Under the pieces are notes generated by a model, which saw only the letters and a program-made list of their open reading frames with translations, did not search any database and was not told where the DNA came from. A DNA stretch of 20,000 nucleotides, taken from the sequence record DRR378314_213; one strand, written 5' to 3'. Positions 4,524 to 17,911 of this stretch are shown in pieces; the first letter of the stretch is position 1, and each line of letters starts with the position of its first letter. A program made the position numbers and the translations under genes.

Positions 4524-4574
4524 GCGGCATGCTGTTCCTCAGTCGTCACAACGAAGAGAAAAAGGGGATAGTTG

Positions 4575-10467: not shown

Positions 10468-11499
10468 ATGCTTGTAGACGAATTTGACTTTCAATTACCC
10501 ACTGATTTAATCGCGGATCGTCCTGTCACCCCACGGGAAGCGGCAAAAATGCTGGTTGTTGCTGATGGGTTGTCAGATCATACTGTGGGGGAGTTGTCGG
10601 ATTTTCTAAAATCTGGTGATGTTCTGGTTTTTAACGATACCAAAGTCATTCCGGCCCGCTTGAAAGGGACCCGGCGCACGGCAAAAATAGAAGTCACGCT
10701 ACACAAGAATGTAGGGCTTGATACCTGGCATGCTTTTGCCAAGCCTGCCAAAAAGCTGAAACCCGGTGACATTATAGAATTTTCCAGTGATTTCAGGGCT
10801 TTGGTCAGTCAAAAACTGGACGGTGGGGAGGTTGTTCTCACCTTTAATAAATCTGGTTTGGAATTGATGCAGGCGCTGTTGAAAGATGGTGAAATCCCGC
10901 TGCCGCCTTATATCAGTTCGCTCCGCCCGGTGGATGATCAGGATAAAGAAGATTATCAGACCATATTTGCCCGTGAAGAAGGTGCGGTCGCGGCACCTAC
11001 GGCCGGATTGCATTTTACGCCGGAATTGCTGGCGACAATCAAGGCTATGGGTGTCCAAACCGTCGCCACCACTTTGCATGTGGGGGCCGGGACCTTTTTA
11101 CCGGTCAAGGTGGACGACACGGACGATCACATAATGCATTCAGAATATGGGATCATTACCAAAGAAGCTGCGGATCAGATTAATGAGTGCCGTAAAGCAG
11201 GGGGACGGATTGTTTCTGTCGGGACGACAAGCTTGCGCCTGCTGGAAAGCGCTGCGGATGACGAAGGGATCATTCATCCTTTCAGTGCGGAGACGGATAT
11301 CTTTATTACACCCGGCTATCGTTTCAAAGCGGTTGACGTGTTGATGACCAATTTTCATTTGCCAAAATCAACGTTATTTATGCTGGTATCCGCCTTTAGT
11401 GGTGCTGCTCAAATGAAGGCAGCGTACGCGCATGCCATTGATGCCAAATATCGGTTTTACTCTTATGGGGACAGTTCGCTGTTATTTCCGAAATCATGA
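10468..11499 (+). CDS. queA: S-adenosylmethionine:tRNA ribosyltransferase-isomerase
   Basis: [68 protein letters not shown]. Confidence 0.97.
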
Positions 11500-12629
11500 C
11501 CATTTCCAACTTTGAATTTCAGATCCAGTCGACAGATGGTGCTGCCCGGCGCGGAACATTGAAGACAGCTCACGGGGAGATCAGGACCCCAGCATTCATG
11601 CCGGTGGGCACTGTTGGTACGGTTAAAGGGATGACCCCGGAAGCGGTGCGGGAGACCGGAGCCGACATATTGCTTGGGAATACCTATCATTTGATGTTGC
11701 GCCCTGGCTCAGAGCGGGTGAAAAAGCTGGGTGGTTTGCACAAATTCATGAATTGGGAGCGGCCGATCCTGACAGATTCCGGGGGCTTTCAGGTTATGTC
11801 CTTGAATGAGCTTCGGAAAATTGATGAAAATGGCGTGGTGTTTAAATCCCATATCGATGGCAAAAAGTTTGAGCTAACACCCGAGCGATCCATGCAGATC
11901 CAGAACGATCTGGATGCGACCATAACGATGGCATTTGACGAATGCACACCGTTTCCGGCGGATCATAAACTTGCGGCTGACAGCATGCGCCGGTCCATGC
12001 GGTGGGCGAAACGCTCCCGCGATGGGTTTGAAAAGCGAACGGGCTATGGTCTGTTTGGAATTGTTCAGGGGTCCATCTATGAAGACCTGCGAAAAGAAAG
12101 CATAGAAGCTTTGACCGATATTGGGTTTGACGGATATGCAATCGGCGGATTGGCTGTTGGTGAGGGGCAGGAGAATATGTTTAAGACCCTTGAATTCACC
12201 ACGCCCAATATGCCGACGGAAAAACCCCGGTACCTGATGGGGGTTGGTAAGCCGGACGATCTGGTTGGTGGTGTTATGCGGGGTGTTGATATGTTCGATT
12301 GTGTTTTACCGACACGATCCGGGCGAAATGCACAGGCTTTTACCCGTTATGGGACAGTCAATATGCGAAATGCCCGCCATCAGGAAGATCCAAGACCTTT
12401 GGATGAAAATTGTAAATGTCCGGCCTGCCGGAATTATTCACGCGCTTATTTGCATCATTTGTTCAGGGCGAAGGAAATTCTCGGATCAGTCTTACTGACC
12501 TGGCATAATCTGCAATATTATCAAGATCTTATGGCAGGTATGCGAAAAGCAATTGGCGAAGGTGAGTTGGCGGATTTCGCCCTGGCTTTTCATGCTGCGC
12601 AAGATCAGGGTGATATCGACCCGCTTTAG
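11496..12629 (+). CDS. tgt: Queuine tRNA-ribosyltransferase (tRNA-guanine transglycosylase)
   Basis: [35 protein letters not shown], zinc site CKCPAC...H; ATGA overlap with the queA stop. Confidence 0.98.
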
Positions 12630-13840
12630 GTTTCCTCAAAGCTCATTCGGGTTCCAAGGATCTTTTGCACCTCTGCAACCGGTAGGGGTTTGGAGATCAA
12701 ATAACCTTGCCCGAAATGGCAATCCAAATCCCGATAGAGGGAAAGCTGCTTCATGGTTTCAATCCCCTCGGCCACGATTTCCAGGTTCATGTTATGAGAT
12801 AATCCGGCGATGGCCCGAACGATTTCCTGGCTGCCCTGATCACTGAGCATATTATGGGTGAAAGAGCGGTCGATTTTCAGTTTATCAATTGGGAACTGAT
12901 GCAGGTAGCTGAGGCTTGAATATCCAGTGCCAAAGTCATCGAGAACGATCTTAAATCCGAAACTTTTCAGGTCCTGAAGCATCTCCTTGGCACAATTGGT
13001 ATCTGCCATCAGGATAGTTTCAGTGATCTCCAGTTCTATATGCTCCGGATTAACTTTAGTTTTGAGTGCGATTGCTTTAATCGTTTCGACCAGATCGGGT
13101 TCAGAAAATTGTTTGGCGGAAATATTGATGCTGACAAACACTTCCGGGCTGCGATGTTTTGAAGCCCGTTCATTGAACTCTATAGATTTGAGGCACGCCT
13201 CTTCAAACACCCAGTCACCAATTTCCTGGATCATGTCGGTTTGTTCCGCGATATCGATAAAGTGATAGGGGGTTAGCAACCCTTTTTCTGGATGGTTCCA
13301 ACGGATTAAAGCCTCAAAGCCGGCTGTAAACCCGCCCCGTAGAGAGATGATTGGTTGGAAAAACAGTTCAAACTCTGAATTGACAAGCGCTGCTTGTAAT
13401 TCTTCTTTTATTCTAAATCGTTGGACCAGTTCTTCACTGGTGGTTTGTAGCTTCTTCTCGCGATGATGCCGTCGGGATGAGAATGTATTGATCTGCTCAT
13501 CGGTGCCGTAATGCTTCAGGGTCAAATTGTGACATCGATCCATGAAGAAATTGAGAAACAGGCTGAGGAGGGGATCTACGTGAGCAGTTTTTTCTTCAAT
13601 ATCAGAAAGAGTAACCACAACGAGTAAGCTGTCTTCCTCCGCCACAGCCGTCGAATAATGCGCAGCCCCTTCAATCACACCATATTCACCAAACATGTCA
13701 CCCGGGCCAAGCGAATAGCTCCCGAGGCTGGACGCCCGGTCACTTACCGCGACTTTGCCCTGTTCGACAATATACGCGTATTCACCTGTTTCCTTGTCAG
13801 AGAGAATGATGTCTCCCTTTTTGACCTGTATACGATGCAA
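12626..13840 (-). CDS. cNMP-binding-like domain fused to an EAL c-di-GMP phosphodiesterase domain (no GGDEF)
   Basis: N-term GDII...AYIVEQGKV...GPGDMFGE (cNMP barrel). C-term [55 protein letters not shown] start is bounded by an in-frame TAA two codons upstream. Confidence 0.9.
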
Positions 13841-14073
13841 ATTTTATACTCTAGCAAGTTTTTCTAAAATTGGATGTATACCATGAGCTGCCTTTATTAC
13901 TTTTTCGTTAAGCTGCAGAGGTTAAGTAAGTTATTGTATTTAAATAGAAGTTTTTATTCTGATAATCTCTAGCTCAAACAATAAAAATGCACTTATAGGT
14001 ATAATTAGGTGATAAGTAATGTTTTTATTTAGGGGATTTGCGTGCAGATATAGCAATTGCTTTACAGATAGAG

Positions 14074-14200
14074 GACCTATGTCGACGCAATAGGGGTCAC
14101 AATTCTGCTGTTTTCTGCGGGGAAGGCAAAGTAATCGAAGCTGCCATTACTCTCAAAGGGGGGGGCTTGGAAAGAAGTAACAACAGCTCCGATCAACCTT
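14074..14200 (-). ncRNA. Candidate small RNA or structured leader with C-rich loops (ends approximate)
   Basis: 20-bp stem 14194-14175 / 14152-14133 with 14 WC + 6 G-U pairs, complete only on -, and loop containing UCCAAGCCCCCCCCUUU. Second hairpin UUUGC-CUUCCCC-GCAGA (14130-14114). Third hairpin CCUAU/AUAGG (14094-14076). Confidence 0.45.
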
Positions 14201-14226
14201 GGACAAGTTCATTTTGTCGTTAGAGT

Positions 14227-14243
14227 GTTAACAATGTGTTAAC
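14227..14243. promoter_or_regulatory. Perfect CtrA-type binding site TTAA-N7-TTAAC
   Basis: GTTAACAATGTGTTAAC: two GTTAAC half-sites 11 bp apart, matching TTAA-N7-TTAAC on both strands. Confidence 0.65.
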
Positions 14244-14284
14244 TTGTAATGAAAGACTGGCCTTTAATTCTGAAAGTTTTTCAA

Positions 14285-15445
14285 TTAAACCGAGTTATCG
14301 TTTTTTTTCAATAACTTCGCCTTTTCAGGAATTTTCAAATTTTTTTCATTGCTGGTTTTACCGTCATTTTCGTAAAGCATTGTCATGAGAATCTTGTCTA
14401 AAAACCGAAAAATGAAGTCGATACTATAGCCAGCCAGGAAAGCCAGAGCCAATGGGCTTAGGGAACTATCCCCGGGATCGATTGTTAATAGCTGTTCAAT
14501 ATTTTCTGGAACCGGCTTTGGCGGTCCACTTGTGGGATGGATGAAAAAACTGATCATCATTCCGGCTAACGGTCCTTGGGCCAGACGTAGATTATAATTG
14601 ATATAGGAGTTTCGCGAAAAAATGAGGCTCGAGATCTCTCTTGGCAGCTGGCGGAGGATATAAAAACAGGCGCCGATCAATCCATAGAGGATCGGTAGAA
14701 GATATTCACTGATCGCTTGCAAGGTGTTCTCGGCTGCGACGAACTGAATTCGTTTCTGAATCGCTTTGGAGTAAGACTTGAAATCCTCGTCTTGCCAGGG
14801 TTGGTAGGTGAACACATCCAGATTGGACCAGACTTCATTCCAGTTCTGCAGATGATTGGTCGCCGCGTCACGCCAGTTTAGATGTTCGTTGAGTTGATCG
14901 CGGATCAATCCCAGTTCAAGCGCTCGCGGATGGTCAATGCTCAAGTGATCCTGTGGTGGGTTTCGAGTTGTTTGTTTGGAAAGTGTAACCAGCCGGTCGT
15001 TTAATGCCGATATATTTTGATTTTGCGTATTGATATCCAATACGAGGGCATAGCCCACATACCAGTAGATTTGAATCGCGATCAATAAAAATAATGTAGA
15101 CATGGACAGGATCCGATAGCGCGTGACACAGCGCTCTGACAGCGATCGCCTACTGCGCCGCCAAAACCAAAAGCGGCTTTCTTTTGAAGCGGTAACAGGT
15201 GGGTAGTTGGACAGGATACTGTCGATGGTAATCGGATGGAGCAGATCACAAAGCTCACTGTAAGCTACCCAAAAGGCAATCCGATTGTCTTTGGTTAGAG
15301 TATCTAGCTGGTCACAATCTGTAACCGTCAGGATCGCGTTCATCACATTTTCGGGAATAGGCAGGGCACATTCACTGGCGACCTGTATCATCAGGCTCGC
15401 GTTTTCAGCTGAGGATAGAAGGCGGCTGTCGTGAGCTATAGACAC
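14285..15445 (-). CDS. Hypothetical membrane protein (about 4 TM segments plus a coiled-coil-like loop)
   Basis: 386-codon ORF with GTG start (uncertain). Hydrophobic segments LFLLIAIQIYWYVGYALVL, YLLPILYGLIGACFYIL, GPLAGMMISFFI and LALAFLAGYSIDFIF. Confidence 0.8.
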   Translation of the reverse strand: MSIAHDSRLLSSAENASLMIQVASECALPIPENVMNAILTVTDCDQLDTLTKDNRIAFWVAYSELCDLLHPITIDSILSNYPPVTASKESRFWFWRRSRRSLSERCVTRYRILSMSTLFLLIAIQIYWYVGYALVLDINTQNQNISALNDRLVTLSKQTTRNPPQDHLSIDHPRALELGLIRDQLNEHLNWRDAATNHLQNWNEVWSNLDVFTYQPWQDEDFKSYSKAIQKRIQFVAAENTLQAISEYLLPILYGLIGACFYILRQLPREISSLIFSRNSYINYNLRLAQGPLAGMMISFFIHPTSGPPKPVPENIEQLLTIDPGDSSLSPLALAFLAGYSIDFIFRFLDKILMTMLYENDGKTSNEKNLKIPEKAKLLKKNDNSV

Positions 15446-15992: not shown

Positions 15993-16661
15993 TTATTTAA
16001 GCTGCTGAATGTAGCAAAGAACATGATCGATGGTTCGCAGATCCTCACTTAAGGGGAGCGCAATCAAACGAATGGGCATCTCGCCAGTTAAAGATGGGAA
16101 TCTTTCTGTCCCGTGGGTTGGTTTGCCACTTGTCGCTACTTCTCGTGCCAGTCCCAGGATCCAATCGATCACCATGGGGGTGAATTCGATGCGATCAATT
16201 TTCTGCTCTTCAGGTGCGTATTTTTCACTTGTCTTGCGAATAGCTGTTGTGAATTCATACTTCACCTGCAGGCGCCCGATTTCCCGGTTGCAATGGATGA
16301 GAAGACAATTAGGCCAATGCTGACCAATCTTCTCTGGCTCCAGCGACTGCCAGGACGGATAGCGGCGCCCTTGGCGAATGTCCAACCAATAATTCAGGAT
16401 ATCCGGTGCGGCCTGCTTCTTCGGTCCCCAACCTGTATTGCGGATCGGTTTTGATGCCGGGGCGGGCATTGGCGCGGGGGTAATTGCGGCTGGGGCTGCA
16501 GTTGTTTGATCAAGTTCTTCACTCAACAGGGCCAGCCGCCGGGTAATGTCACCAGCTTTCGGAGCGTCGGGTTGGGCCAGGCTCGTCTTTCGGACCTGAA
16601 TACGGGCTAAAGAAGCGGCATTGCCGCAATCTACATCCTCTTGATCAAACACATTTGGCAT
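15993..16661 (-). CDS. PAS-like (PAS_5/DUF1457-type) domain protein with a low-complexity Pro/Ala-rich N-terminus
   Basis: ILNYWLDIRQGRRYPSWQSLEPEKIGQHWPNCLLI and terminal RLIALPLSEDLRTIDHVL match the YW..R..R..P....LPLS.DG pattern of PAS_5; linker TTAAPAAITPAPMPAPASKP. Confidence 0.65.
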   Translation of the reverse strand: MPNVFDQEDVDCGNAASLARIQVRKTSLAQPDAPKAGDITRRLALLSEELDQTTAAPAAITPAPMPAPASKPIRNTGWGPKKQAAPDILNYWLDIRQGRRYPSWQSLEPEKIGQHWPNCLLIHCNREIGRLQVKYEFTTAIRKTSEKYAPEEQKIDRIEFTPMVIDWILGLAREVATSGKPTHGTERFPSLTGEMPIRLIALPLSEDLRTIDHVLCYIQQLK

Positions 16662-17212: not shown

Positions 17213-17911
17213 CTAGACCGAAGCCATTTGTGTACCAAAAGCTTTGGTTGGCTTTTGCTGGCGACGAATATGTGAGGACATTGCAACAGGGATTTTGTTG
17301 AGCCGTTCATTCACATAAGACCAGAGTTTGGTGATTTCCTCACTGGATTTGGACGCGGAATTTAATTCCATCACCGTTCGTCCATCAATCATGCTGGAGG
17401 CAAAATCCACCCGCTGATGCAGGATGGAAGGGGCCAGGGTTCCGTGTTGGGAAAGGGCAATCGCGGCCTCTCCGGTAATTCGGGCCCGGGGAGTTGCTCC
17501 GTTCACGACAAATAGCAAAGGCGTATCCAAACCTTCTGCCAGTTCAACTGTTGCCCCAACGGCCCTAAGGTCATGCGGGCTCGGCCGGGTTGGGATGATC
17601 AACAGGTCTGATACAGTTAGCACATTTGCGATAGTTTCAGTGATGGCAGGGGGGGTATCAATGATTAAAAGCTCAATGCCCATGCGGTCCATTCGAGCCA
17701 CATCGGTTTTTAGCTTTTCAATGGAGGTTCTAGCAAAAAGGGGCGTTTCTGCTTCTCGTTCATTCCACCATTCGGACAAACTGCCCTGAGGATCAGTATC
17801 AACAAGGGCAACAGGACCGGCGCCGGTCATTTCGGCCTGAACCGCCAGATGGCCGGCAAGGGTGGTTTTACCAGAGCCGCCTTTTTGAGAAGCAACCGCA
17901 ATCACCTTCAT
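17213..17911 (-). CDS. Orphan ParA/MinD-family ATPase (short type Ib/ParF-like, no N-terminal HTH)
   Basis: Deviant Walker A QKGGSGKTT, LVDTDPQGS, Walker B IIDTPP, IPTRPSPHDL; GGAG SD. Confidence 0.93.
   Translation of the reverse strand: MKVIAVASQKGGSGKTTLAGHLAVQAEMTGAGPVALVDTDPQGSLSEWWNEREAETPLFARTSIEKLKTDVARMDRMGIELLIIDTPPAITETIANVLTVSDLLIIPTRPSPHDLRAVGATVELAEGLDTPLLFVVNGATPRARITGEAAIALSQHGTLAPSILHQRVDFASSMIDGRTVMELNSASKSSEEITKLWSYVNERLNKIPVAMSSHIRRQQKPTKAFGTQMASV

Follow-up and report, generated by a model that had tools for sequence, protein, structure and literature searches.

A hairpin on the minus strand of a 20,000-nucleotide stretch of DNA, which we call the window, raises the question of what kind of element it is. 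The sequence-only reading of this stretch had proposed an RNA driven by a CtrA box, and it left two explanations side by side: a separate small RNA (sRNA), or a long structured leader of the downstream EAL gene. The genes around the hairpin in the window are gyrA, coaD, queA, tgt, the EAL gene, UP386 and an ArsC-like gene. The order at the locus and its relatives is UP386 →, RNA →, (EAL →), ← tgt, the gene in brackets being present in only a part of the loci.

The box, the stem and the six G-U pairs that the sequence-only reading had described were found in the sequence exactly so. The minus-strand hairpin runs from 14195 to 14132 and has 20–23 bp, a C-rich loop and a strand-specific helix. 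Its 5' arm, GATCGGAGCTGTTGTTACTT (14194 to 14175), begins 32 nt past the box and pairs with the 3' arm, GAGTAATGGCAGCTTCGATT (14152 to 14133), at 20/20 positions. G-U pairs occupy positions 1, 6, 12, 13, 14 and 20 of this 20-bp stem, where the plus strand would have A-C. Counted over 14132..14195 the feature consists of 20 + 3 bp with one bulged U; the lower 11 bp are nearly invariant in the family and the upper stem covaries. The apical loop of the window is UCCAAGCCCCCCCCUUU (14155..14171, minus strand), delimited with the help of the family alignment. Folding of 14060-14210 on both strands agreed with the claimed strand specificity. The minus strand gave -41.2 kcal/mol and a z of -2.74, with 4/200 shuffles equally good, versus a z of +0.53 and 137/200 equally good shuffles for the plus strand. 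On the other hand, neither the second hairpin (with the loop CUUCCCC) nor the third one proposed in the same reading appears as described in the minimum free energy structure of the window, and their sequence is conserved only to the closest relative.

Upstream of the hairpin, the 5' segment GUCCAAGGU (14196..14204, minus strand) is part of the longer invariant sequence GUCCAAGGUUGAUCG, and its invariance together with the onset of conservation places the predicted transcription start at about 14204 ± 2. RNAalifold and the folds of distant members indicate that the helix is probably longer by 2–4 pairs, formed by G9/G10 with C77/Y78; in these models, this pairing may cut the 5' overhang to about 6 nt. 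Family members measure 71–76 nt from the conserved 5' end to where the helix ends. Downstream, the hairpin is followed by a pyrimidine-rich tail, CUUUGCCUUCCCCGCAG (14115..14131, minus strand), recognised by its base composition and lacking a U-tract terminator. In the family, the tail composition (44% C, 31% U, 10% G) is the sole conserved feature 3' of the hairpin. No intrinsic terminator was found at the hairpin: it has no terminator-like site, and most members are without a U run. Where the 3' end falls may depend on the helix itself, on Rho or on trimming.

Is this RNA already described? A scan of the whole window against Rfam 15 at gathering thresholds gave no match, and the novelty that had been made dependent on such a search is kept. 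A permissive scan of 13800-14320 returned only noise (E >= 0.85) and left the hairpin unmatched on the minus strand; the lone permissive match overlapping the start of the RNA region lay at 14202-14304 on the plus strand. A literature search on sRNA of Sneathiella found no relevant report. We take the RNA as undescribed because both the Rfam scans and this literature search were negative.

Relatives were reached via the EAL protein, whose orthologues are 61–69% identical in five genomes: Sneathiella glossodoripedis, S. chinensis, two Sneathiella metagenome-assembled genomes (MAGs) and one unclassified alphaproteobacterium. The box, hairpin and loop were present upstream of the EAL orthologue in all five, and by BLAST the RNA was single-copy in each of them. 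Short BLAST matches elsewhere in these genomes fell in unrelated coding regions, were not shared between genomes and were dismissed as chance. Three more distinct members came from a pattern scan of metagenomes. A covariance model built from nine sequences was then found to match exactly once per genome in 35/39 genomes of the order Sneathiellales, as delimited in our genome search, with E-values from 6e-24 to 8e-9. The remaining 4/39 genomes of the order gave no match even with a broader model, and these genomes may be incomplete. In a class-level sample, each of two models (R1 and R2) matched 2/151 genomes, both of them members of the order, and neither model found a match in the 149 other sampled alphaproteobacterial genomes. 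The analysis of locus context excludes five of the 35 genome matches (G015, G017, G028, G031 and G034). Taken together, the genome comparison identifies the RNA as a new family of putative sRNAs, single-copy and restricted to one order of marine alphaproteobacteria, the Sneathiellales.

Conservation of the helix was apparent in several ways. RNAalifold, run on a MAFFT alignment, predicted the same helix without structural input. Among the nine MAFFT-aligned sequences, 97.6% of the pair cells were paired, versus 26–53% when the partners were slid against each other. The corresponding values for 34 sequences aligned with the model were 96.9% and 27–51%, and 11/23 pairs showed changes on both sides (50 cells), which was matched by 0/500 shuffles; the 34-sequence alignment is fitted to the model, which biases its pair counts in favour of the structure, and the shuffle count should not be read as a probability. 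These changes, together with a box present in 33/34 loci, bear out the expectation of the sequence-only reading that stem and box would be conserved in relatives with compensatory changes. Four distant members also folded in a strand-specific manner, with z from -4.3 to -6.2 on the sense strand and from 0.0 to -1.8 on the antisense strand. The loops of the family measure 13–18 nt and contain 66% C and 3% G. Two types of loop exist: CUUUCCAAGCCCCCCCCUUU marks the Sneathiella clade and AUUCCACCCCCUCCCCUC the more distant clade.

A small open reading frame was considered and rejected, as the loop length differs between members by non-multiples of three and there is no conserved start codon; the first triplet is a non-start codon in 10/34 members. 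Frame +1 is open in 30/34 members because of the C-rich, stop-poor composition.

The next question concerns the promoter. CtrA recognises the motif TTAA-N7-TTAA, and the promoters that it activates in Caulobacter and its relatives carry this motif overlapping the -35 region. In the window, GTTAACACATTGTTAAC (14243 to 14227, minus strand) contains TTAA-N7-TTAA at 14242 to 14228, and the CtrA-type box itself is TTAACACATTGTTAA (14228..14242, minus strand); it is nearly identical to the box in the ctrA promoters of the relatives. The single occurrence of the motif in the 20-kb window is at chance level (0.32 expected; at least one in 57/200 shuffles). Because this lone occurrence is not above chance, the case for the box is built on its conservation in 33/34 loci, where it starts 36–37 nt before the conserved RNA block, with fixed half-sites and a variable spacer. 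The exception among the 34 is S. chinensis, whose RNA box has a degenerate second half-site (TTAA-N7-ATAA); the ctrA box of this species is likewise degenerate. A -10-like hexamer, CAAAAT (14211..14216, minus strand), was recognised by reading the sequence along with the family consensus GAT(G/T)AT / AATAT. From the start of the box it is 27–28 nt to the beginning of the -10-like element (in the window, 27 nt), which lies about 7 nt before the onset of conservation. No recognisable -35 element was seen in the RNA promoter, either in the window or in the loci of the family. The start is placed near 14204 because of the -10-like element and the onset of conservation, and would thus fall within the interval 14195-14205 proposed beforehand. 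The box centre lies about 33 nt upstream of this predicted start. Box, -10-like element and RNA are conserved as a unit in 33/34 loci.

This arrangement is like that of CtrA-activated promoters in its fixed half-sites, its variable 7-nt spacer, its centre near -33 relative to the predicted start and its want of a -35 hexamer. The box of many members reads TTAAC-N5-GTTAA and is also an inverted repeat, and judging from this sequence another regulator with TTAAC-N5-GTTAA specificity may act here instead of CtrA. Just upstream of the box, a block TTT(C/T)ATTA (14244-14256, minus strand) was observed to be invariant in the six Sneathiella-clade sequences that were aligned first. It is not retained in the distant clade, and it may serve as an UP element or as an additional binding site.

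CtrA itself was found in all five relatives tested, at 417–423 bits versus a curated cut-off of 350. The ctrA promoters of these relatives carry TTAACCATTTGTTAA at 56–58 nt before the ATG, exactly in 3/5 and with one mismatch in 2/5, and 28 nt past the box a -10-like CAATAT begins, the same geometry as in the RNA promoter. At one locus of the closest relative, G009 (L143, G009:C1:1566635-1569649), ctrA was observed to be divergent from the gene of a flagellar FliI-type ATPase, with the TTAACCATTTGTTAA box in the shared intergenic region. The extended box TTAAC-N6-TTAA occurs at 34 sites in G009 with 40 strand matches, versus 77 strand matches for the reversed motif used as a control; because the extended box is rarer than this control, there is no genome-wide over-representation. 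On contig C1 of this genome, 25/26 sites are intergenic and near gene starts, the other 8 sites being on C2 and C3. The neighbours of the C1 sites include ctrA with the FliI-type ATPase, a flagellar rod gene, a PilZ gene and two GGDEF genes, and further two histidine kinases, two Cache sensors, one CHASE3 sensor, a LuxR-type response regulator, a STAS protein and a DUF2336 protein. This profile of neighbours would fit a CtrA regulon, a reading made from site placement and a qualitative look at the neighbours, with no enrichment statistic. Considering the box, its spacing and the ctrA promoters, we judge from sequence comparison that the RNA is probably controlled by CtrA.

How might such an RNA act? 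The explanation that we regard as slightly better than an even bet is a CtrA-activated, trans-acting sRNA that is independent of EAL and pairs with other RNAs through its C-rich loop. According to this model, a minus-strand sRNA of roughly 75–95 nt would be transcribed from about 14204, the predicted start being the G of GUCCAAGG. The box centred near -33 would replace a -35 element, an arrangement expected for activation by phosphorylated CtrA, and the RNA would be made when CtrA is active. It would consist of one long helix (about 23–26 bp with G-U pairs), a short invariant 5' overhang, a 13–18-nt C-rich loop and a pyrimidine-rich tail. The loop, and perhaps the invariant 5' end too, would pair with G-rich or Shine-Dalgarno-like stretches in mRNA leaders and so alter the translation of those mRNAs. 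Base pairing through the C-rich loop is suggested by analogy, and for this step by itself our confidence stays tentative, a little short of even.

The search for targets was negative among the genes considered. When duplexes with the start regions of EAL (18 regions), tgt (16) and UP386 (20) were evaluated, the mean z values were 0.18, -0.01 and -0.33, that is, no signal, in a crude test based on full-length duplexfold and mononucleotide shuffles with no accessibility term. The leaders of ctrA, from box to ATG, held a GGGG tract in 0/5 genomes and showed no obvious extended complementarity by eye. The target suggested in the sequence-only reading, AAAGGGG at 4561-4567, was not borne out; its position is remote from every gene start in the list of open reading frames.

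Some of these data can also be explained by a protein partner. In that case a partner such as a dsRNA-binding protein, RNase III or an RNA chaperone would recognise the lower helix and the 5' overhang, and the RNA would titrate or guide that protein. GUCCAAGGUUGAUCG is invariant in 34/34 sequences, and both sides of the lower 11 bp are almost without variation, though many other pairs would keep the helix. Such invariance in sequence, beyond pairing, fits recognition by a protein at least as well as target pairing. For an sRNA of the seed type, more than 20 bp makes a long helix, and the lack of a target signal in the duplex test points in the same direction. A bolder variant would see the long sequence-invariant helix as a platform for processing or protein binding and not as the carrier of a seed. 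However, there is no linked candidate for a partner gene; UP386 has no RNA-binding family match and is missing in one locus, L125. Moreover, exposed C-rich loops have base-pairing roles that were tested in related bacteria, as stated in the sections of the reports cited below. We therefore consider a protein-binding or decoy RNA unlikely, while keeping it as a serious candidate.

With the base-pairing sRNA as the preferred reading, the relation to the neighbouring genes can be addressed. The EAL gene (12626..13840, minus strand, TTG start) encodes a cNMP-binding and EAL protein of the c-di-GMP phosphodiesterase type and lies downstream, outside the RNA. If the RNA were a cis-acting 5' leader, transcripts from the box would read through the hairpin, which would stabilise or attenuate the EAL mRNA. 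The EAL gene indeed stands on the same strand 114–291 nt past the hairpin in 18/34 loci, the window included, and no intrinsic terminator lies between the two. The other 16/34 loci, however, have the RNA and the box with no EAL gene, and in 16/16 of these the convergent tgt gene follows directly, its stop 9–26 nt past the hairpin, so that nothing co-directional is there for the RNA to lead. At L125, UP386 is absent and the genes on both sides lie on the opposite strand; the RNA and box are kept. The spacer between hairpin and EAL is conserved neither in sequence nor in length. Rfam models of the c-di-GMP riboswitch (GEMM-I/II) had no match upstream of the EAL gene.

The EAL gene also has a conserved box of its own. 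In the window this second box is TTAACGAAAAAGTAA (TTAA-N7-GTAA; 13897..13911, minus strand), 72 nt before the EAL start. All 18 EAL-containing loci carry one 71–86 nt before the EAL start, in two loci as the variant TTAACGAAATGGTAA, and it is absent from the 16 EAL-less loci. Its spacing to the -10 element is, by eye, about as in the RNA and ctrA promoters. From its position the second box is probably the promoter element of the EAL gene, and the cNMP-EAL phosphodiesterase may itself be CtrA-controlled. Because of the 16/34 loci without EAL and the arrangement at L125, the RNA is to be regarded as an independent sRNA gene and not as an EAL leader, which we hold to be very unlikely. Of the two explanations with which we started, the separate sRNA driven from the CtrA box gained support from the unit conserved in 33/34 loci, from the covariation and from the loci without a co-directional gene; the leader lost ground with the absence of EAL and with the gene's own box. 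We are highly confident that the locus holds an independent structured RNA gene. In the EAL-containing clade, read-through into EAL may occur as a secondary effect.

The convergent gene tgt (queuine tRNA-ribosyltransferase; 11496..12629, plus strand) looks like the ancestral direct neighbour of the RNA. It could be imagined that the RNA runs past the hairpin into the 3' end of tgt and regulates it in antisense by overlap, given the tgt stop 9–26 nt past the hairpin in the 16 EAL-less loci and the want of an evident terminator. In 18/34 loci, however, a 1.2-kb gene separates the RNA from tgt and the RNA is equally conserved there, and its conserved 5' end, helix and loop do not overlap tgt. An antisense role is highly improbable.

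On the upstream side, UP386 (14285..15445, minus strand) is a conserved protein of 386 aa with hydrophobic segments, without a match in Pfam or NCBIfam; it is directly upstream of the RNA in 32/34 loci and shares 33–54% identity among relatives, except in the closest, L101 (69%). The hairpin lies about 90 nt past the UP386 stop on the same strand, but a terminator or 3'-UTR element of UP386, or a palindrome at the DNA level, is hardly credible, since a U-tract is absent, a conserved promoter-like unit stands between stop and hairpin, L125 retains RNA and box without UP386, the invariance of the RNA sequence is far above that of UP386 and of the flanking proteins in general, and the 2–7 G-U pairs per member make the helix strand-specific, which rules out a DNA palindrome.

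To our knowledge, only a small number of RNAs have been connected to the cell-cycle circuit of alphaproteobacteria, and CcnA is the main tested case. In the sections cited here, CcnA of Caulobacter crescentus is described as an RNA of 182 nt inside the replication origin, with several stem-loops and a CtrA box near its start, whose Loop A uses its CCCC to pair with GGGG in the leaders of ctrA and gcrA; the same sections mention no clear homologue even in Sinorhizobium (PMC8959179). As far as that description goes, the RNA found here is like CcnA in having a CtrA box close to its (here predicted) start and an exposed cytosine run in a loop. It differs in being about 75–95 nt long, in forming a single helix and in lying between UP386 and tgt/EAL. 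Judging by its neighbours and by the cumulative GC skew, which climbs across the window with no turning point, the gene probably lies outside the replication origin, and the ctrA GGGG target is lacking in the ctrA leaders of all five relatives. CcnA is set apart by this description and not by sequence; models R1 and R2 match only members of the order among the 151 class-level genomes. The Sneathiellales RNA is analogous to CcnA and probably not homologous to it.

Two other RNAs deserve comparison. The cuckoo RNAs (alpha-r14/CcsR) are described, in the part of the report cited here, as 2–4 adjacent hairpins of 24–50 nt, each loop with CCUCCUCCC (PMC4615179). With these the present RNA shares C/U-rich loops resembling anti-Shine-Dalgarno sequences, the distant clade having CCCCUCCCC in its loop. 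Measured against that partial description, it differs in its one hairpin of about 65 nt, in the occurrence of CCUCCUCCC in 0/34 members and in having no Rfam family at threshold. In Caulobacter, an exposed C-rich loop of GsrN pairs with a G-tract located at the katG mRNA's 5' end, according to the portion of the report that we cite (PMC5869019). The likeness is again an exposed C-rich loop in an alphaproteobacterial sRNA. GsrN differs in being under the stress sigma factor sigma-T instead of a CtrA-type box, and in showing no sequence or model match.

The family therefore offers a second RNA with a CtrA-type promoter, apparently unrelated to CcnA, with covariation support and with stricter conservation across the order than its protein neighbours. 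It may even be a functional counterpart of CcnA, not by descent: a CtrA-activated RNA that would feed back on the circuit of cell cycle, motility and c-di-GMP, including the CtrA-box EAL phosphodiesterase gene inserted beside the RNA in one clade. We think this quite unlikely; if true, two or more alphaproteobacterial orders would have evolved sRNA feedback driven by the master regulator independently of each other. With this family one can test cleanly whether CtrA regulons generally include sRNA arms, and its covariance model could enter RNA family databases. At least two carrier species are in culture collections, S. glossodoripedis JCM 23214 and S. chinensis LMG 23452.

Some minor observations were made on the surrounding genes. 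A protein of 222 aa encoded at 15993-16661 (minus strand) has a faint match to MopJ, a motility and cell-cycle regulator (19.7 bits versus a cut-off of 200), and no Pfam family. A P-loop ATPase of the ParA/MinD/MipZ type (232 aa) is encoded at 17213-17911 (minus strand), with no adjacent ParB-like gene in the scan of open reading frames. The EAL gene between the RNA and tgt represents a gain or loss that is specific to a clade and affects a fixed site (loci L109 and L111-L125), and its non-ATG start is conserved among relatives as TTG, with GTG in S. chinensis.
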